Source of the DNA: an uncultured Methanoregulaceae archaeon
GTDB taxonomy: Archaea > Halobacteriota > Methanomicrobia > Methanomicrobiales > Methanospirillaceae
Assembly: GCA_963705255.1 (NCBI GenBank)
Contig: OY970061.1
Span: 1,376,001-1,440,000, forward strand
Direction: 5' to 3'
Length of the DNA stretch: 64,000 bases
Shown: positions 3,828-14,671 of the stretch, piece by piece
Layout: each line of letters opens with the position of its first letter
How positions within the stretch are numbered: position 1 is the first letter of the stretch
The notes under the pieces: model-generated
What the model saw: the letters and a program-made list of their open reading frames with translations, nothing else
What the model was told of the DNA's origin: nothing
Database searches by the model: none
Made by a program: the position numbers and the translations under genes

Positions 3828-3971
3828 TTACGGTTTCGGGCTCTGCCCTCCGTCTGATTCCATGTGATCGAGGACCCTGTCCCACATGACGAGGAGTCCC
3901 GGGATGATCACGTAGGCGAGCAGTCCGGCTCCTGAGAACCCGGCGGTGATCAACACTTCGTTGTCGACCAT
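3828..3971 (-). CDS. Small 47-aa single-TM membrane protein
   Basis: Manual translation MVDNEVLITAGFSGAGLLAYVIIPGLLVMWDRVLDHMESDGGQSPKP*; GGTGA RBS between upstream TAA and ATG. Confidence 0.6.
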   Translation of the reverse strand: MVDNEVLITAGFSGAGLLAYVIIPGLLVMWDRVLDHMESDGGQSPKP

Positions 3972-3986
3972 GTCAGTCACCACGGA

Positions 3987-4490
3987 TTACGAGAGCGCCG
4001 GGATGCTGTCGGCCCAGGTCTCGACCTTGCTGCGGATCGCTTCATCGCTGTACAAAGTGAGAGTCGCCTGCGAACGGCTGAAGTTGACGTAGTAGATCTC
4101 GCCGTTTGCATCGTGGCACCTCAGCGTCACCGCGAAGGTCTCGTGGGCGGCGTCGCGGACCGCGGTCCCCCCAAGGGAGGTTGCGATCGCCGTGTCAGCC
4201 TCGATATGGTTTGCCACGGCCGTGAAGGCTGCGACCGACTCTGCCCGGATGCTGATGAGCCCGACGGTGTTTGCATCAGAGTCCTGGTAGAGGACCCGTG
4301 CGGTGTAACCCTGCCGGCCGCGTTCAACCGGGGGGTGGTTCACTCCTTGTGCGTTGTAGGAAACGCACTGGAAGGGGTTGTTCGTTATGACGCCCTGGAC
4401 AATAGTCTCGAAGGCAGTCACGTCTGGGAGCGGTGTCGCGAACTTTCGGACAGCGCTCTTCGTGGTAGTTCCTAATACGAAATCTGCCAT
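3987..4490 (-). CDS. Conserved hypothetical protein (MADFV... type, recalled from Methanomicrobiales)
   Basis: 167-aa ORF with host-like codon usage and GGAGA upstream. Confidence 0.75.
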   Translation of the reverse strand: MADFVLGTTTKSAVRKFATPLPDVTAFETIVQGVITNNPFQCVSYNAQGVNHPPVERGRQGYTARVLYQDSDANTVGLISIRAESVAAFTAVANHIEADTAIATSLGGTAVRDAAHETFAVTLRCHDANGEIYYVNFSRSQATLTLYSDEAIRSKVETWADSIPALS

Positions 4491-4508
4491 GTTTTTTTCT
4501 CTCCGAAG

Positions 4509-4642
4509 AGGTTCAGTATGAACCTTGAGGATGAGAAGAACTCATCAGAGTTCTTCGAATTCCGAAGAATTCCGTATAACCTCGATGGGGTAAAGGGAGG
4601 CAACCTGCCTTCCCTTAACTTCTGTGGGTTCGTCCTGAACCT
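4509..4642. mobile_element. MITE/REP-like element, locus A of hairpin repeat family
   Basis: Imperfect 16-bp terminal inverted repeats AGGTTCAGTATGAACC (4509-4524) vs reverse complement of 4627-4642 AGGTTCAGGACGAACC (14/16); core hairpin GAAGAACTC-ATCA-GAGTTCTTC 4535-4556. Confidence 0.55.
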
Positions 4643-6250: not shown

Positions 6251-7618
6251 ATGACGCAACTTCCTGAAAAACCACCGGACTGGACGAAACACCTCACAGG
6301 GGGACTGGTAAACTATTTGATCAATGCGGAGTTCGCAAAATCTGTGGCGGAATATAATCGTCGTTACCTCTTCTGGGACGAACTGAAGTACCGGCTGCCA
6401 GATGAAGAGCAGCGGAGGACGGCGTGGGCTGTCATGAAGTTTTACCGGTCGATGCGACAGGAGATTCCTTATTCCTCACTCAGACTCACCTACTCGATCA
6501 TTCCTGAGATAGTAAAAAGCCTCCACGCGATCGACAGCTACCTCACCGGGAACATCCGCATCCACAACAAGACCATCCGGCTCGAACAGTCCTACATCAT
6601 CAACTCGTTCATGGAGGAAGCGATCGCATCAAGCATTCTCGAAGGTGCAGCAACGACACGGAAAGCTGCAAAGGAGATGCTCCGGAAAGGCAGGAAGCCG
6701 AAGAACAGTTCCGAGCAGATGGTTGTCAACAACTACGAGGCTATGAACTTTATCCTTGAACACAAGGACGACCCGCTCACTCCTGATCTCATCCTTGAGA
6801 TCCACCGGCTGGTAACAAAAGGAACCATCGATGAAGACTCGGTCGGGCAGTTCCGGACCAACAATGATATCGTCGTCGCAAATCCAGCCACCGGCGTGGT
6901 CTTTCATACGCCACCTGATTATCGAGAGATAGAACACTCCGTAGCTGAACTCTGCGATTTTACCAACCGCGTTGAACAGGATTCCGGAAAGGGAGATGCG
7001 GATTACATTCACCCGGTCATCATGGGGATTATCCTGCACTTCCTCATCGGGTATATCCACCCGTTCAATGACGGGAACGGGAGGACTGCCCGCAACCTCT
7101 TCTACTGGTACGTCCTCTCACGCGGCTACTGGCTGTTTGAGTACATGCCCATCTCGCGGATCATTCTCCGGTCGAAAAAGAAGTATTCGCTTGCATACCT
7201 CTTTACCGAATACGATGAGATGGATCTCACCTATTTTATCCTTTATAACCTGTCCTGCGTTGATGAAGCCCGGAGAGATCTCCTGAAATACCTGGAGGGG
7301 AAGCAGACCGAACAGAATGCAACAAAAGCTATCATTAAAAAGATCCGGGATATCAACCAGCGTGAAGGGGATATTCTCCGGCACATGATGGAGCACAGTG
7401 ACGAGTATTTCACAATCCGGGAGATCATGCAGATGTATACTACCGTATATGAAACTGCCCGGACCGATCTCCTTCATCTTGCAGATCTCGGATACCTGAA
7501 CAAGGAAAAGCGGGGACGGGAATTCATCTTCATCTTCAATGAAAGCAGCGAACTGTGGAAACACAATGCAAAGAAAGATGCTACCGTCAAACCTCATCCA
7601 CGTCAGGAGGAATCCTGA
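6251..7618 (+). CDS. Fic family protein (class II, autoinhibited) with C-terminal winged helix
   Basis: HPFNDGNGRTAR canonical Fic motif; SSILEG inhibitory (S/T)xxxE(G/N); C-terminal TARTDLLHLADLGYL wHTH. Confidence 0.92.
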   Translation: MTQLPEKPPDWTKHLTGGLVNYLINAEFAKSVAEYNRRYLFWDELKYRLPDEEQRRTAWAVMKFYRSMRQEIPYSSLRLTYSIIPEIVKSLHAIDSYLTGNIRIHNKTIRLEQSYIINSFMEEAIASSILEGAATTRKAAKEMLRKGRKPKNSSEQMVVNNYEAMNFILEHKDDPLTPDLILEIHRLVTKGTIDEDSVGQFRTNNDIVVANPATGVVFHTPPDYREIEHSVAELCDFTNRVEQDSGKGDADYIHPVIMGIILHFLIGYIHPFNDGNGRTARNLFYWYVLSRGYWLFEYMPISRIILRSKKKYSLAYLFTEYDEMDLTYFILYNLSCVDEARRDLLKYLEGKQTEQNATKAIIKKIRDINQREGDILRHMMEHSDEYFTIREIMQMYTTVYETARTDLLHLADLGYLNKEKRGREFIFIFNESSELWKHNAKKDATVKPHPRQEES

Positions 7619-7837: not shown

Positions 7838-8775
7838 TTAGCTTAGCCTGTTAGGAAGACGATGATGTCCTACCTTGTCATGCGATTGTAGACTTTTTAA
7901 AATGGTATTCATTTCATCCATTTCTTCTTTTGAAAAATTATCACTGTCCATTACTTTATTCCCGTAATTGTTTAGTTTTTCAAATAATCCTAGTTTTTTA
8001 TCTGGAAAATTCCGAGAGGATTGTCCGGTAACCCACTTAAACTGCGAATCCGAAAATTGTTTGAAAGGCCCATTCATACATGCTGAAACAAGACGGTCTC
8101 TCTTAGTAGGATCTTTCGATGCTAATATGATATTCATGATTCTCGTTTCTGATAGGCTGAAAATTGGATCATCAGGATTCAAACTTTTTTTCCAGTCATA
8201 AAAAAATACAGCATAATCAAATATGCGTTTACCATAACCATATTGCCCTCTGCCCCATTGTTCAAGAGCTTGCGTAATTTTTTCGAGGGAGACATCACGA
8301 TTATCATCTAAAAATTGTCGAATGCGTTTTCCCGATTCCCAAAATTCGGATGTTGTTGTTATTTTTTGCTTTCTGATCTCCCCACATATGTTTTTATTGT
8401 ATCTTTGAACTTCAGCTTTTGAAAAAGCTCGGATTTTTTCTTCAAGTTTGCTTTTTTCTTGCATCAATGAAGTACTAATACTTTTTAATCCAGATTGTGT
8501 TTTATTGCTAGTTGCTGTATCCCCAGCAATGTACTTTTTAGTACCATTATTAAAAGTTAAAATCAGCCCTTTCGGTCTTGCAATTATTCTGACTTTTAAG
8601 CCTACATTTTTTTTAACGTCGGCCCAGTTGATCTCATTATTCGTATTTACATTGATTGGTTTTCCTGGAGGCCCCCTGCAAGAACTTCTCTAGCCCAAGC
8701 TTGTGCTTCATCTGCTGTCCATCGTAACCCTCTTTCTGGGATAGTTATAACGATATTTGCAGGATTATATTCCAT
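7838..8775 (-). CDS. Hypothetical ~312-aa protein with DUF1016(YhcG)-N-terminal-like domain; frameshift in G-run near 8672
   Basis: ATG 8775 (MEYNPANIVITIPERGLRW...VLAG) joins the frame of ORF 7838..8467, which is open upstream to the G-run; FWESGKRI..YGYGKRIFDYAVFFY..LSETRI..D...RD pattern. Confidence 0.65.
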
Positions 8776-8779
8776 GATA

Positions 8780-10831
8780 TCATTCCCGAGATGCAGCTCG
8801 TAATTTTTCACAGGAACGTAAAAATTTTTTTCTTAAAACGTCTACATTCTGAAAATGCTGTAATACTTGGTCTTTATCGAATTTTTCCTGAGGACTATTC
8901 TCCATGAAATCCTTGAGTCGTCGTTCTGCCATAACTTCAGCAATCATTTCATATAAAATCGAATCAGCGACTCGAGGTTGAGTTTCGTATACGAGACCGA
9001 TCCGAGCCCCTTTTGTATTAAACCAAATATCTCCATCAGACCAAATAGGCATAATCTCATTCTGAATTGGATCGAGCGAGTCATCTGTTATCGGTGATAA
9101 ATCCTGGATTGTACCTTTCCGTCCATCATCACCTTTATTTCCTCCTTTTGGAGGACTTCTGGAAATTATTTCTGGTTCTATTTCAATCCATATCGAATGT
9201 AACGCTCGCTCAAGTTCAATTGACTCAGTTGAAGAATCGGATCCCTTTTGTCTTGGCGGTTGATTTTGTAATATACACCGGATGTAATTTTTTCCTATTC
9301 CAAAATCATCAATGATCGGGATGTCTAATGTATAAACAATTCTTCCTTTTTTATCTGCAACAGCAGGGTCGATAATTGGAATATCATGATATTCCCATGC
9401 ATTCAATCGAGATAATCCTTTATCAAGAGCTTCTATTGTTAATTGTAGATATTTTTGATATTCCTTTGTGGGATTTAGAATGATAATTTCAATGTGGGCC
9501 TTATCCTCATAGTTGTAAAATTCCTTATCGAGTTTAATATCTGATATGAACGGATGTTCTGGAGATTCTTTTTTATTTCTTTTTCTCGTGATTTCATCAG
9601 TACCTGACCACGGATTAAAATCTGGTACTTCTGCAAATGCTCTTTGCAAAACGTCTAAATTTATTTGAGCTCGCTTTCTATCTTTTTCGGTCAAGCGAGG
9701 TTTAAATTTTCTTTTTTCATAAGGTATAATAAAATCTTCAACATTTTGCTGAAGCAAGTCCTGAACTTTTTTATAGTGGGGATGAGGAGTAAATCCACGG
9801 TGCCCTGGTTTTTCACATGCGCATAAGAAGCGTCCTTCGAAGTTACAATCGTAACTTGCCCAACCATAAATTCTATCCTGTAATTCTGTACTAATTTTTC
9901 GACCGAAATCTGTGTCACGTTCAATAACCTGTGTACCCTTTTTTATTAGCGCAATACCCCTTAACTCCCGGGGTAGTGGTTCTTCTGCTAAAAAAAACGC
10001 CACATTAGTTAATTCCCCAATTTTTTTCTTATTGTAGGTTACTGGGATTTTTGAGATTTTTTTCACTATTGGTTTTCCACTATCTGTTGCTGGAACAGGG
10101 AAGTGAGGCATTCCAATTTTTTGAAGGTCTTTATCAATATATCCAAATCTGATTTGAACACCTTTTTTTATTGCAGCACACCAAGTTTTTGAAATATCTT
10201 GAATGATTCTTTCGGCATCCAATAATTCATCATGAACCGGGTCAATCACACCTCGGATGATAATTTCTGATCCCTCAGGTTCATCAGATTTCATGAGATA
10301 GTCTTCAGATAAAACCCAAGTCCAATCATTTCCGGATCTCGTCCAATGAGACGCCATTGTATCTGTTTTATGGAAGGATTTGGGAGAGGCAATTTTTGTT
10401 CGTACGATTGTTTCAGTTCCAGCTACAATAAGTAAGGATTTACCCTGCCCTCTTGATCCAAGAGAATTTAATGGCTTACCTAACCCGCCCAAATAGTGAA
10501 AATTGCCCCAACTGCAGTGATCATCATGGCAATCTTCGGCACCTGAAATCCTACCCCAAAAACATTTTTTACAATGGGGCATCCCGGTAGTACCATAATC
10601 TCTTATAGACAGGATACGATTTTTGGGATCATATCTGATTATAATTTTTACATCCTTATAATCAGATTTTTTTGCGTCAATCGAATTTTGAATCGACTCT
10701 TGAAAAATACCTTTCGCATGTGACTCATAATCATCTTTATATGATTCCATTAACCGATGTGTATTTGCACTTAATTTATGACTCTCTTTAGCGTAGTCGG
10801 GAATTGTTGTTTTTAATGATTCTGTGGACAT
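8780..10831 (-). CDS. GHKL (HSP90/MutL/MORC-like) ATPase with long C-terminal region
   Basis: QESIQNSIDA N-box, RDYGTTGM G1, LGSRGQGKS G2; 683 aa; AT-rich. Confidence 0.85.
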   Translation of the reverse strand: MSTESLKTTIPDYAKESHKLSANTHRLMESYKDDYESHAKGIFQESIQNSIDAKKSDYKDVKIIIRYDPKNRILSIRDYGTTGMPHCKKCFWGRISGAEDCHDDHCSWGNFHYLGGLGKPLNSLGSRGQGKSLLIVAGTETIVRTKIASPKSFHKTDTMASHWTRSGNDWTWVLSEDYLMKSDEPEGSEIIIRGVIDPVHDELLDAERIIQDISKTWCAAIKKGVQIRFGYIDKDLQKIGMPHFPVPATDSGKPIVKKISKIPVTYNKKKIGELTNVAFFLAEEPLPRELRGIALIKKGTQVIERDTDFGRKISTELQDRIYGWASYDCNFEGRFLCACEKPGHRGFTPHPHYKKVQDLLQQNVEDFIIPYEKRKFKPRLTEKDRKRAQINLDVLQRAFAEVPDFNPWSGTDEITRKRNKKESPEHPFISDIKLDKEFYNYEDKAHIEIIILNPTKEYQKYLQLTIEALDKGLSRLNAWEYHDIPIIDPAVADKKGRIVYTLDIPIIDDFGIGKNYIRCILQNQPPRQKGSDSSTESIELERALHSIWIEIEPEIISRSPPKGGNKGDDGRKGTIQDLSPITDDSLDPIQNEIMPIWSDGDIWFNTKGARIGLVYETQPRVADSILYEMIAEVMAERRLKDFMENSPQEKFDKDQVLQHFQNVDVLRKKFLRSCEKLRAASRE

Positions 10832-10837
10832 AAAAAA

Positions 10838-11101
10838 TTACGGAAGGGAGATTTCTTTCTCTACCTTTCCTTGGAATGCGTTTTCAACAGTTCTAACAGA
10901 TTCCTTCAGAGTTCGGAGAATGTATTTTACTTGGGCATCAGTATACTCATATCTGTTCTTGTCCGCTAATGGAGCAATAAGTTCGATGGTGTGTACTGCT
11001 TTCTCTAATCGGGCTTCCCCAAGTTTCCGAAATTTCTGTGCTTTGGGGCTTTCAACCTGAGTTTTTTCTTCCATATTTTGTTCCTCAAAACGATTATACA
11101 C
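10838..11101 (-). CDS. Small helical protein of a family often seen in RM/defence loci
   Basis: KFRKLGEARLEKAVHTIELIAPLADKNRYEYTDAQV..L pattern; probable start at 11074 (MEEK). Confidence 0.7.
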   Translation of the reverse strand: MYNRFEEQNMEEKTQVESPKAQKFRKLGEARLEKAVHTIELIAPLADKNRYEYTDAQVKYILRTLKESVRTVENAFQGKVEKEISLP

Positions 11102-11194: not shown

Positions 11195-12184
11195 TTATAT
11201 TGCTTCTACAGAAGCTACAGGCATTATAGTATTTAATGTAGAATCTTGAAAAAAATATTTTTTGGGGACCCTTTCTATTGCAAAACGAATCCTTTTAGAG
11301 GCGATATTGTAAGCTTTCTCATTCAGCTCAATGCCGACAGATTTACGACAGAGCTCCAAGGCACCTAGCATTGTGGTTCCGCTCCCTGCATGAGGATCGA
11401 GAACAAGATCATTTTGTTTTGATGACGCTAGAATAATCCATCGTATTAAATCCAGCGGTTTTTGAGTTGGATATTCAGAATTACTTATTATGGGGGGAAT
11501 TTCAAGGATACTTTTTGGATATCTTTTTCCAACATTCTTCATGGAATATGGTTCTTTTTTGAAAGAATCCTGAGTCGCGGGATGATTCTTTTTCCTATTA
11601 CGAGTATATGGTTTGCCGTTTGTCATGACTTGTTTTGTGTAAAATTTTGTATTATCGATTCGAGCTCCTTTTTTACAGAAAACGAATATATTTTCATGAA
11701 TCGGTAGCGGTTTGAAATTGGAAGACCAGGGTATATTATTGCGGTTCCAGATTATCTCAAATCTGAAATCAAAATATTTTCTGAAACTATTATAGACATC
11801 AATCAATGAGGGTTGCTTTCCAAAAATATAGACAAGGCCATTATCATTTAACACGTTATGATAAAGATCAGCCAAAACATCCCAATCTGGAGCTTCGTCC
11901 CATGGAAGCTTAGTAATACCATAGGGAGGATCGTCAATGATAAGATCCACAGAACTTGGAGATAATGTTTTAAGATGTTCCTCGCAATAGTCTTGCACTA
12001 ATGTTGGCTGATAAAATGAAGGAGGATCACGCCCAAATGATGTAATATGTCTAAATTTATTCTTATCACCTTGTCGATAATATTCGACCAAGTAATAGTA
12101 ATTTCCATTTACCCCTTTTGATTTTTTTATGTAATAACGTGACAGTCTGTGTTCATCGACTTGATCTAAGGAAAGAGGAGACAT
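11195..12184 (-). CDS. Beta-class N6-adenine/N4-cytosine DNA methyltransferase with N-terminal extension
   Basis: DDPPY motif IV before YPTQKP and LDPHAGSGTT motif I, GIEL. Confidence 0.92.
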   Translation of the reverse strand: MSPLSLDQVDEHRLSRYYIKKSKGVNGNYYYLVEYYRQGDKNKFRHITSFGRDPPSFYQPTLVQDYCEEHLKTLSPSSVDLIIDDPPYGITKLPWDEAPDWDVLADLYHNVLNDNGLVYIFGKQPSLIDVYNSFRKYFDFRFEIIWNRNNIPWSSNFKPLPIHENIFVFCKKGARIDNTKFYTKQVMTNGKPYTRNRKKNHPATQDSFKKEPYSMKNVGKRYPKSILEIPPIISNSEYPTQKPLDLIRWIILASSKQNDLVLDPHAGSGTTMLGALELCRKSVGIELNEKAYNIASKRIRFAIERVPKKYFFQDSTLNTIMPVASVEAI

Positions 12185-12441: not shown

Positions 12442-12680
12442 CTAATGAATATCTTTTTATCTTCATTCTTAATCCGTGGTCTCATCCATTTCCTATCCTA
12501 TGTGAAATTATTCCACACAAGTCTCATCGCGAAGAATGGGGCCAGAAGATTACCCGAAACGCTCCCACAAACATTTCCATTCATGAGCAGGTTATACGAC
12601 GGTATCGTGCTTCAGAAAGATGCCGCACGAGAACATTGACCCCTAGGTAACCCAAACATCCGCGAACTATCCCCACCCCT

Positions 12681-12999
12681 TCCCAAAACCTTCCGGCCCA
12701 ACTCAGTACCTCCCAAAAATAATTTTGCCTCAGGTCCGATCGCGCCAAAATTTTTTTTGGCGCAACTCAGTACGAGCCAGAAAAATATCTGGGACCCCCT
12801 CCCAAAAATGACCGTTCACGCCTAAACACCAGTTGTCTGACACGGCCCGGTCGCGCCAAAAAAATATTTGTCCCAACTCAGATCGGCCCAAAAAAATTTT
12901 TGGCGCAACTCAGTACGAGCCAAAAAAATATTTGCCTCGCACTGGATCGAGCCGGAAAAATATCCGGCGCGATCGGGACCGGGCCGGAAAATCTTCCGG
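12681..12999. repeat. Array of nine 16-bp quasi-palindromic boxes with exact 32-bp period, in two blocks
   Basis: Boxes start at 12681 (degenerate), 12713, 12745, 12777, then 12856, 12888, 12920, 12952, 12984; e.g. CCAAAATTTTTTTTGG, CCAGAAAAATATCTGG, CCGGAAAAATATCCGG; 16-bp linker CGCAACTCAGTACGAG occurs twice identically. Confidence 0.9.
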
Positions 13000-13111
13000 A
13001 CCGCACAACCCAATCAACTGACCAACCCCTCTCTTCCGGTCCGCAACGGGAAAAAGAACTCCATGCAAGATCCGCAAGGATATTCACCACAGGTAATAAA
13101 ATACGTGCAGG

Positions 13112-13480
13112 ATGCTGAAGACCAGCTACTTCGCGAGGAGTGCCAAAGAGCCCGGTGCGGTCTCGATAGCCCGCTTCCCGCCGCGATGGTATTCCGGCAG
13201 GAGATACTTCAGGCTCGCCCCGACACCTGAGATGCTGAAACTCGAGGACTGGGAAGAATACCAGAGAAGGTACCGGGAGGAGATCCTCTCGGGCCTCGAT
13301 CCCGATGAGATCCTCCGGGACCTGGACGTTGCGGGGGCAGGTCATGATGTCATCCTGCTCTGCTTCGAGAAGGAACGGACGCACTGCCACCGCGGGCTGG
13401 TCGCAGAATGGTTTTCTGAAACAATAGGGCTCGAAGTCCCCGAAGTCGGATCCCCGTCCACGATCCAGGCGACACTCTAG
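13112..13480 (+). CDS. DUF488 family protein
   Basis: TSYFA..VSIAR..P..LAPT..L, YREEIL, LLCFEK....CHR.LVAEW. Confidence 0.8.
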   Translation: MLKTSYFARSAKEPGAVSIARFPPRWYSGRRYFRLAPTPEMLKLEDWEEYQRRYREEILSGLDPDEILRDLDVAGAGHDVILLCFEKERTHCHRGLVAEWFSETIGLEVPEVGSPSTIQATL

Positions 13481-13687
13481 AACCTGTGGTTGGCAGTCGC
13501 GAGCCTAGCGAGGGGGATACGGGACCGGCAGGAACGGGGAATGACAGCCAACCTGCCGGAAAACCAACCTATATATTTCCGTCCCGCAATTAACAATTGT
13601 GAATTATTCTCCGGCAGAAGCCCCATCCCCGAAAAGAGCCAACGGACACCGGAGACAGAATCCCTGAATTCCTGAGAGAGGTTGCCT

Positions 13688-14671
13688 ATGAAAATCCACG
13701 ACAATATCACCAAAACCATCGGCAATACCCCGCTCGTCCGGCTGAACCGGGTGACAAAAGGCCTGGACGCAACCGTGCTTGCCAAAGTCGAGTCCTTCAA
13801 CCCGATGGGCAGCGTGAAGGACCGGATCGGGGTTGCCATGATCGAGGCTGCCGAGACCGCAGACCTGATAACGCCGGATACCATCATCCTCGAGCCGACA
13901 AGCGGCAATACCGGTATCGCCCTTGCCATGGTGGCCGCTGCCCGGGGTACAGGATCACGCTGGTCATGCCGGAGACGATGAGCATCGAGCGGCGCAAGCT
14001 CCTCAAAGCCTTCGGCGCCGAGCTCATCCTCACGCCCGGCAAAGAGGGGATGAAGGGAGCGATAGGAAAGGCCGAGGCCCTCCTAGCAGAGAACCCCCGG
14101 TATTTCTACATCCCCCAGCAGTTCCGGAACCCGGCAAATCCCGCCATCCACCGGAAGACAACGGCAGAGGAGATCTGGCGGGACACGGACGGGAAGGTGG
14201 ATGCCGTTGTCTCCGGTGTGGGGACCGGCGGGACAATCACGGGAATAGCCGAAGTGATCAAGCCCCGCAGGCCCTCGTTCAGGGCCATCGCCGTAGAACC
14301 CGATGCATCCCCCGTCCTCTCGGGAGGCCAGCCCGGCCCGCACAAGATCCAGGGCATCGGTGCGGGTTTTGTTCCCGACGTGCTCAGGAAGGATCTCCTG
14401 GACGAGGTGATCCGCGTGACATACGAGGATGCTGTTGCCGCCGCACGGAAGATGGCCAGAGAGGAGGGCATCCTCATCGGCATCTCCGGCGGGGCAGCGA
14501 TATGGGCAGCGCTCCAGTCTTGCGGCACGGAAGGAGTACGCAGGCAAGACCATCGTGGTCATCCTGCCGGATACCGGGGAGCGGTACCTGAGTACGGAAC
14601 TCTTCGAAGTCCGGGATGTTAACCAGGACCCCGGAGAGGAGAAGGATCGTCAGTATCCTCCGGCCGGGTAA
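13688..14671 (+). CDS. cysK: Cysteine synthase A (frameshifts near 13945 and 14520)
   Basis: [48 protein letters not shown] spread over three frames. Confidence 0.92.

Follow-up and report, generated by a model that had tools for sequence, protein, structure and literature searches.

What is the role of an array of A/T-rich boxes placed at exact 32-bp intervals between a DNA methylase gene and a DUF488 gene in an uncultured Methanoregulaceae archaeon? The window is the whole analysed stretch of 64,000 nucleotides. Positions written out in full without a comma refer to it, and those in kilobases (k) to the chromosome. The parts of the array and its two neighbours are as follows.

11195..12184, - strand: N6/N4 DNA methyltransferase gene (PF01555, E 9.6e-33; PADLOC MTase_II), the first gene of an A+T-rich island (GC 35-38%) left of the array
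12652..12680, + strand: C-rich left leader, an approximate left end; most aligned copies have a similar C-rich run ahead of the first box
12681..12792, + strand: left arm, four 16-bp semi-palindromic boxes (consensus CCRRAAAWWWWTYYGS) in 32-bp steps with three 16-bp linkers
12793..12855, + strand: central core of 63 bp, which yields a 79-bp box-to-box step
12815..12826, + strand: core motif, consensus TTCA-CGTC-TGAA, second subtype TTTC-CGTC-GAAA; the CGTC is common to sister families
12856..12999, + strand: right arm, five boxes in 32-bp steps with four 16-bp linkers
13000..13025, + strand: right terminal module, beginning CCGCACAACCC, found in many copies; it is not an inverted repeat of the left end
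13112..13480, + strand: DUF488 gene (N3 subclade), right of the array

The first-pass annotation described nine boxes in two blocks, uniform 16-bp linkers and a non-coding location between these genes, and all of this is correct. The boxes start at 12681, 12713, 12745 and 12777 and at 12856, 12888, 12920, 12952 and 12984; the steps are 32 bp, and the middle one (12777 to 12856) is 79 bp. Within the arms, seven of seven linkers are 16 bp long, and the linker sequence CAACTCAG (repeat family D2) is present four times. Tandem Repeats Finder reports a period of 32 with a score of 109. The 79-bp offset noted between the blocks is real, and the gap is more than an offset, as it holds a conserved core. 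Palindromic symmetry, also claimed, is found in most boxes and fails in the first (12681), which pairs at three of eight positions and scores 7.3 bits against 17-24 for the others. The left arm has one unit fewer than most copies in this genome, and the core motif differs from the family consensus at two positions.

Contigs from two public runs, one of which may be the source sample, span 12669-12879 and 12788-13535 with one difference each. Because these contigs cover the array and homologues occur in other genomes, the array is not an assembly artefact, a danger raised at the outset. In a genome-wide lag scan (128-bp windows), nine loci reach at least 50% self-identity at lag 32 and none does at lags 26, 28, 29, 31 or 34. 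A Fourier scan of the A/T content of the genome gives nothing above the chosen threshold at any period.

The window array is one copy of a dispersed family (family I), not a unique local site. The genome contains six full copies, at 690.4k, 1014.8k, 1231.7k, 1388.7k (the window), 1479.9k and 1875.0k, and four partial copies, at 806.1k, 827.5k, 1480.9k and 2080.5k; in the profile search the E-values of the six seed copies are circular. In a full copy, a C-rich leader is followed by the left arm, the core (about 63 bp) and the right arm, and often by a short module on the right. All copies show the same position-specific linker types, which means that the element was copied as a whole. Within this genome, identity between copies over the core region is 69-87%. 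A tree of copies groups them by chromosomal site (6 label changes against 11.0 after shuffling, with none of 200 as low), and for three of the six sites the copies make up one side of a branch.

A two-box pattern matched 12 loci in 185,579 species genomes, 10 of them in Methanoregula or Methanoregulaceae; the other two (Planctomycetota and Bacteroidales) are unrelated. With one mismatch allowed, it is found in 11 of 71 other Methanoregula genomes and in none of 202 other Methanomicrobiales, and a reversed control pattern has no match in the same set. The metagenome loci (n=27) include six further full copies. Counts from the BLAST of relatives are lower bounds, as 3-17 candidates were scored per genome. 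Viral contigs have no match for this pattern or for that of family III, a sister family described below; two shorter patterns give 41 and 8 single matches there, none with phased boxes. Plasmids have no array match. Since family I is patchy within the genus and missing at several sites of a sister genome, no single copy is essential. A literature search at listing level, which covered few subscription papers, found no account of such elements in Methanoregula.

These copies bear on the suggestion that the array is an iteron-type origin, centromere, transfer or packaging site of an adjoining integrated element. Phased repeats are typical of such sites, and the array does lie at the edge of an A+T-rich island. 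However, the six full copies have no common flanking genes of that kind: no rep, cdc6/orc, par or recognisable recombinase gene lies beside any of them, and two lie between ordinary metabolic genes. The arrays are missing from the viral contigs and plasmids searched, and the same island position holds another element in the sister genome. This proposal is largely refuted and has only a very slight chance of being correct. A CRISPR array was also considered and rejected; the linkers recur within and between copies, and the CRISPR of this genome, at 505k, has another repeat.

Comparison with genome G089, the closest relative found, shows how the elements come and go. Flanks are 94-98% identical in the two genomes. 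G089 is without the family I copies at 1231.7k and 1479.9k. At the 690.4k site it has an array of family III instead, with the box CAAT-W8-ATTG, a 32-bp period, two arms and a CGTCGGA core; the two genes flanking this site are also found in 11 more distant genomes, where no array separates them. The junctions at 1479.9k and 690.4k are replacements, not clean insertions. There is a clean empty site in G089 for the family III copy at 1572k, and it allows two readings, insertion of the element into an A/T run and collapse of an array between its outer boxes. Collapsed copies that lack the core include one with a 143-bp deletion and a remnant in G089. Partial copies are likewise without the core rather than ending in it. 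Terminal inverted repeats were not found: between the 120-bp flanks of the six full copies the best inverted score is 6-9, no better than the direct score. A MITE is rejected on this ground. In 11 of 21 family I copies, the array strand has a motif of TGCACCA type at a distance of 130-450 bp from the core; its genome-wide background is 0.23 per kb on both strands, and two relatives have it at their empty 690k-type site too.

Spacing is the most constant property of the family. Counting steps of 30-34 bp in 21 full copies, 121 of 148 arm steps are exactly 32 bp; the core step is 79 bp in 16 of the 21 and 76-81 bp in the other five. A simple minisatellite in decay, with a period not conserved between homologues, had been named as the finding that could overturn the first-pass annotation. 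The period is kept in homologous arrays, and the geometric part of that annotation holds. With a helical pitch assumed to be 10.5 bp per turn, 32 bp is about three turns and 79 bp about 7.5.

These observations suggest what the element works like. The reading that we prefer, tentatively and at somewhat less than an even chance, is that it is a dispersed modular non-coding element of Methanoregula whose arms likely act as phased putative docking sites; the DNA-binding protein that docks there would be oligomeric and would wrap the arms. This reading is consistent with spacing that is kept despite sequence drift and with a box length that holds while the A/T interior varies freely (21 copies): 21 of 27 pattern matches within arrays have length 16, and outside arrays 7 of 148 do. 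Unit-sized indels in 11 orthologous pairs, which are not independent of each other, are exactly 32 bp in eight of eight cases. Sister arrays with different letters in the boxes (family III) also keep 32 bp and have a core step near a half-turn value, about 9.5 turns.

The same data can be read without any protein. The element may be a neutral or selfish mosaic repeat which has been copied around the genome and has minisatellite-like arms, the 32-bp period being kept by slippage and unequal exchange; unequal exchange between tandem units can hold a period by itself. Whole units are gained and lost, copies collapse, the distribution is patchy, the genome is full of other non-coding repeat families, and periods differ between the families of arrays. 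Small indels are not rarer in arrays (31 per 485 substitutions) than in flanks (48 per 707; p 0.91). These counts give no support to selection on spacing. Compensation of indels is a trend only (11 of 31 in arrays against 8 of 48 in flanks, p 0.065), and several uncompensated small indels sit at array edges or in the core. Against a neutral repeat, copies group by site and keep position-specific linkers, and units are thus not being homogenised. The homopolymer-rich boxes hold their length of 16 while their interiors vary, and different families keep 32 bp and near half-turn core steps. On balance the neutral account is rather unlikely, and it is a serious competitor.

The sister families show what is general in this plan and what is not. 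Family III has at least five loci in this genome. Its period is 32 bp, and its core step measures 99-100 bp, with whole units added in some cases; the step of 99-100 bp is two helical turns longer than that of family I. Family II has units of about 31 bp and a core step near 108 bp, and is found in at least six other Methanoregula genomes. Genome G058 has a family with 25-bp arms and the same core motif. A copy at 328k in this genome has the exact 12-bp family I core motif and other arms. In G089, what lies upstream of the DUF488 gene at the window site is a different two-armed element, G+C-rich and with the same core motif. As sister arrays with different arms hold the same core motif, the plan of two arms and a core is common to several families. 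The other periods (about 31, 25 and 27 bp) and the core step of family II mean that three turns and a half-turn offset are not universal, and this counts against protein docking as the reason for the geometry.

Further arrays of related type were seen. A G+C-rich two-armed element has GGGTACCC palindromes, often 27 bp apart, and a CGTCGGA core, and is sometimes in tandem; its loci are as follows.

G000:C1 (this genome): 71.5k, 1016.6k, 1233.3k, 1236.0k, 1795.6k and 2365.8k
other loci: L212, L213 and L243

Another 32-bp family has two alternating linkers, which gives a 64-bp higher-order repeat, and the same core motif (L223, L226, L219 (G004)). An A/T array of 25-bp period at 1303.8k-1304.3k has arms like those of G058; the pattern detects no core motif in it.

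The boxes themselves were thought to be A-tracts with ends that covary to keep symmetry. In the window copy the ends do match in eight of nine boxes. In the family as a whole they match in 61 of 152, and 61.0 are expected by shuffling (Fisher p 0.66); the linkers show no covariation either. Half-boxes switch independently between CCAA and CCGG types. The two ends of a box thus vary independently, as expected for half-sites in duplex DNA rather than for hairpin stems, and this fits a docking site. The description as rigid A-tracts fails for many boxes: of the 152, 49 are pure AnTm and 79 contain a TpA step. Given the known behaviour of A-tracts, the TpA in about half of the boxes would suit a bendable protein site better than a rigid one.

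This variation also bears on the idea that the array acts as structured RNA or single-stranded DNA, a chain of hairpins with A/U loops around a core hairpin with a CGTC loop, similar to REP/BIME elements. Folding z-scores are strong (-7.1 as RNA, -6.5 as DNA), the two core subtypes differ by two paired changes in a small stem (TTCA/TGAA against TTTC/GAAA), and one subtype has a longer outer stem. However, good folding is to be expected of any palindrome array. The box stems show no covariation, and both polarities of mismatch are frequent in them (AA/CC 28, GG/TT 24); neither strand is rescued by G-U pairs, and hairpins are therefore not what is conserved. One of five flanking pairs reaches p 0.03, uncorrected, an Rfam search over the array (three loci, E up to 1) gave no match, and the arrays have mixed orientation to neighbouring genes. 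A nucleic acid fold is improbable as the explanation.

A histone-positioning or histone-excluding signal had also been proposed. The genome has two histone genes, MC1 was not found in it, and an archaeal histone dimer covers about 30 bp. However, the A/T period is 32 bp and not 10 bp, and such a signal leaves both the conserved core and the spread as a unit unexplained. It seems most improbable.

Genes of toxin-antitoxin, Fic or methylase type are frequent beside the copies. Of the nine independent family I loci of this genome, six have a Fic/Doc, HicB, MqsA-type, DUF488 or methylase gene within 700 bp; among 20 intergenic gaps of 350-1500 bp chosen at random as a control, the number is 2, or 3 at most (p 0.004 to 0.01). 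Of the 40 genes called in the control, 36 were scanned, the other four being one long gene and three short, doubtful calls. Of the loci, 2080.5k and two full copies are misses, and 1480.9k was merged with 1479.9k. At the window site the left-hand defence genes differ in all four sequences compared (this genome, G089 and two metagenome contigs). The association may come from a role in exchange, or simply from a location that is permissive to both.

Several genes near the window array are of interest in themselves. At the thresholds used, neither Pfam nor PADLOC gives a match for three genes of the methylase operon (7838-11101, - strand; 209, 683 and 87 aa), and the A+T-rich operon is possibly an undescribed defence system. 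The 683-aa protein, judged by eye from its motifs, we take to be similar to a GHKL ATPase. A SoFic-like Fic protein is encoded at 6251-7618 (+ strand; PADLOC E 1.8e-46). Fic genes also adjoin arrays in G009, G049, G075 and at 1479k, and the Fic gene in L026 is split by frameshifts. The cysteine synthase gene (13682-14622) is apparently split by a frameshift near 13943-13981 as well, and the contig of one run has an extra G at 13943.

Exchange of such genes is what would be expected if the array were a recombination site with accessory arms, similar to NIME/dRS3 or att sites, at which an enzyme cuts the core and swaps neighbouring toxin-antitoxin, Fic and restriction-modification genes. The gene association and the variable defence genes at the window site agree with this. 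So do a core subtype with inverted arms around a variable 8-bp spacer, the presence of different families at one site, and the occurrence of one core with different arms at 328k. However, a shared preference for permissive regions would give the same association, which is weaker for family III loci. Copies differ in their spacers, and exchange between unlike spacers would be blocked if the enzyme were a tyrosine recombinase. No half-sites with the break at the core were seen. In this genome, which is 89.5% complete, one tyrosine recombinase is encoded at 2,540k, and there are one reverse transcriptase, two DDE transposase matches, both weak, and no PF01797 match for a Y1 (RAYT/TnpA) transposase; none of these genes, nor the histone genes or the one Lrp/AsnC match (PF01037, 1,972.7k), adjoins a family I copy. 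The reverse transcriptase match is at 316.7k-317.2k (- strand), in a 533-codon frame in an A+T-rich stretch among accessory genes. We consider a recombination site unlikely. An att site or an integron attC in the strict sense was rejected, as there is no cognate recombinase nearby and partial copies lack the core instead of ending in it.

The preferred reading, in which the arms are docking sites, has its closest parallel in archaeal Lrp/AsnC (FFRP) operators such as those of Ss-LrpB and FL11. Lrp-type dimers bind 13-17-bp imperfect inverted repeats with an A/T-rich centre, placed two or three turns apart, and the DNA is wrapped (PMC2995911). The array has the same box length, A/T centre and spacing, and like these operators it has imperfect repeats three turns apart in clusters that could be wrapped. 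In those operators the sites are degenerate and confined to promoters, and they do not spread as a unit (PMC2995911), whereas the array has 9-11 boxes, two arms and a core, and no Lrp gene nearby. Its boxes are even 16-mers, and the single AsnC/Lrp match of the genome lies beside no array, both of which weigh against a protein of this type. Identity with an Lrp operator is not claimed.

By analogy, each 16-bp box, with its A/T-rich centre and G/C half-sites, would take one protein dimer. Four to five boxes placed three turns apart on one face of the DNA would allow each arm to be wrapped, and this number would suit an octamer of four dimers. With the half-turn offset, the wrapped arms would then lie to either side of the CGTC core, opposite each other, and the core would stay exposed. 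On weaker grounds, the element may have spread as a whole unit through an enzyme acting at the CGTC core, and may afterwards have been inherited site by site, gathering where accessory genes turn over. A broader version joins these ideas: arms of 32, 31, 27 or 25 bp would be interchangeable around a shared CGTC core, a host protein would wrap them, and an enzyme at the core would both mobilise the element and swap the adjacent toxin-antitoxin, Fic and restriction genes, making the element an archaeal cassette-exchange site without an integrase gene. We regard this as a speculative extension with a small chance of being right.

As to class, the first-pass annotation held that the array fits no standard feature. 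It does resemble a known one, the modular dispersed intergenic repeats: there are multiple non-coding copies with shared modules and variable unit number, present or absent between close relatives. We place it with the repeats of BOX and NIME type. The BOX elements of pneumococci (boxA-boxB(n)-boxC) are likewise dispersed, non-coding and modular, with variable internal units; they are gained and lost between relatives and clustered with other repeat families (PMC3049150). They differ in having many more copies and terminal inverted repeats likened to ISSpn2 (PMC3049150). The array has two sets of boxes around a central core, no terminal inverted repeat and a helical-phase period. Neisseria NIME (dRS3 plus RS units) share with it syntenic positions, a variable unit number and a regular G+C wave, and they adjoin variable genes and are proposed recombinase targets; dRS3 has inverted arms around 8 free bases, as in one core subtype of the array (PMC1797815). 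RS units are 19 to 214 bp long with no fixed period, and dRS3 has a known phage recombinase (PMC1797815), whereas the array has a fixed period, its special motif once in the middle, and no known enzyme. REP/BIME and CGTC repeats also have palindromic units with linkers, the CGTC tetranucleotide and, for CGTC repeats, no known dedicated transposase (PMC3733652). As described there, CGTC REPs are single G+C hairpins from five bacterial phyla with CGTC at one end (PMC3733652). The array has CGTC once, in the core, and A/T-centred units without covariation. A REP/BIME with RAYT was rejected, as there is neither a Y1 transposase match in the 89.5% complete genome nor a set of tagged hairpin units with stem covariation.

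Other multicopy sequences occur in the window. A gene for a 167-aa protein (3987-4490, - strand) lies with a small membrane gene (3831-3971, - strand) and belongs to no Pfam or PADLOC family. It has eight matches in this genome, is found in 98 of 107 other Methanoregula genomes with 871 homologues, has no match in viral contigs, and looks like a mobile multicopy gene. Its predicted structure is a confident alpha/beta fold (pLDDT 92) for which Foldseek gives no convincing match (best TM 0.25-0.34). A palindromic repeat of about 57 bp lies upstream of it (4502-4560); this repeat has more than 25 matches in G089 and is part of the largest repeat cluster of the genome (143 segments). A family of proteins of about 120 aa has 16 members (G000:C1 829.8k, 2058.5k, 2468.2k, 2595.6k and 12 more), some of them upstream of the 167-aa gene. 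The one member tested has no Pfam match, and the family may be nuclease-like. A near-identical block containing a small-protein gene, a repeat tract and a 167-aa gene is duplicated at 2058k-2060k and 2468k-2470k. Links between the arrays and these genes were rejected: an array lies upstream of the 167-aa gene at 3 of 30 loci only, all of family II, and most copies of the 16-member family are tens of kilobases from arrays.

Modular dispersed repeats have been described from bacteria. In the Methanoregula elements spacing is kept while the letters turn over, and unrelated-looking families occupy the same seat; they thus offer a clean test of geometry as a conserved trait. Should a protein wrap the arms, an array probe would identify it as a new factor of chromatin or recombination, and the methanogens concerned are a widespread group. 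Should the core be a recombination site, this would explain how defence genes are reshuffled in these archaea, here in a genome with few recognisable transposases.
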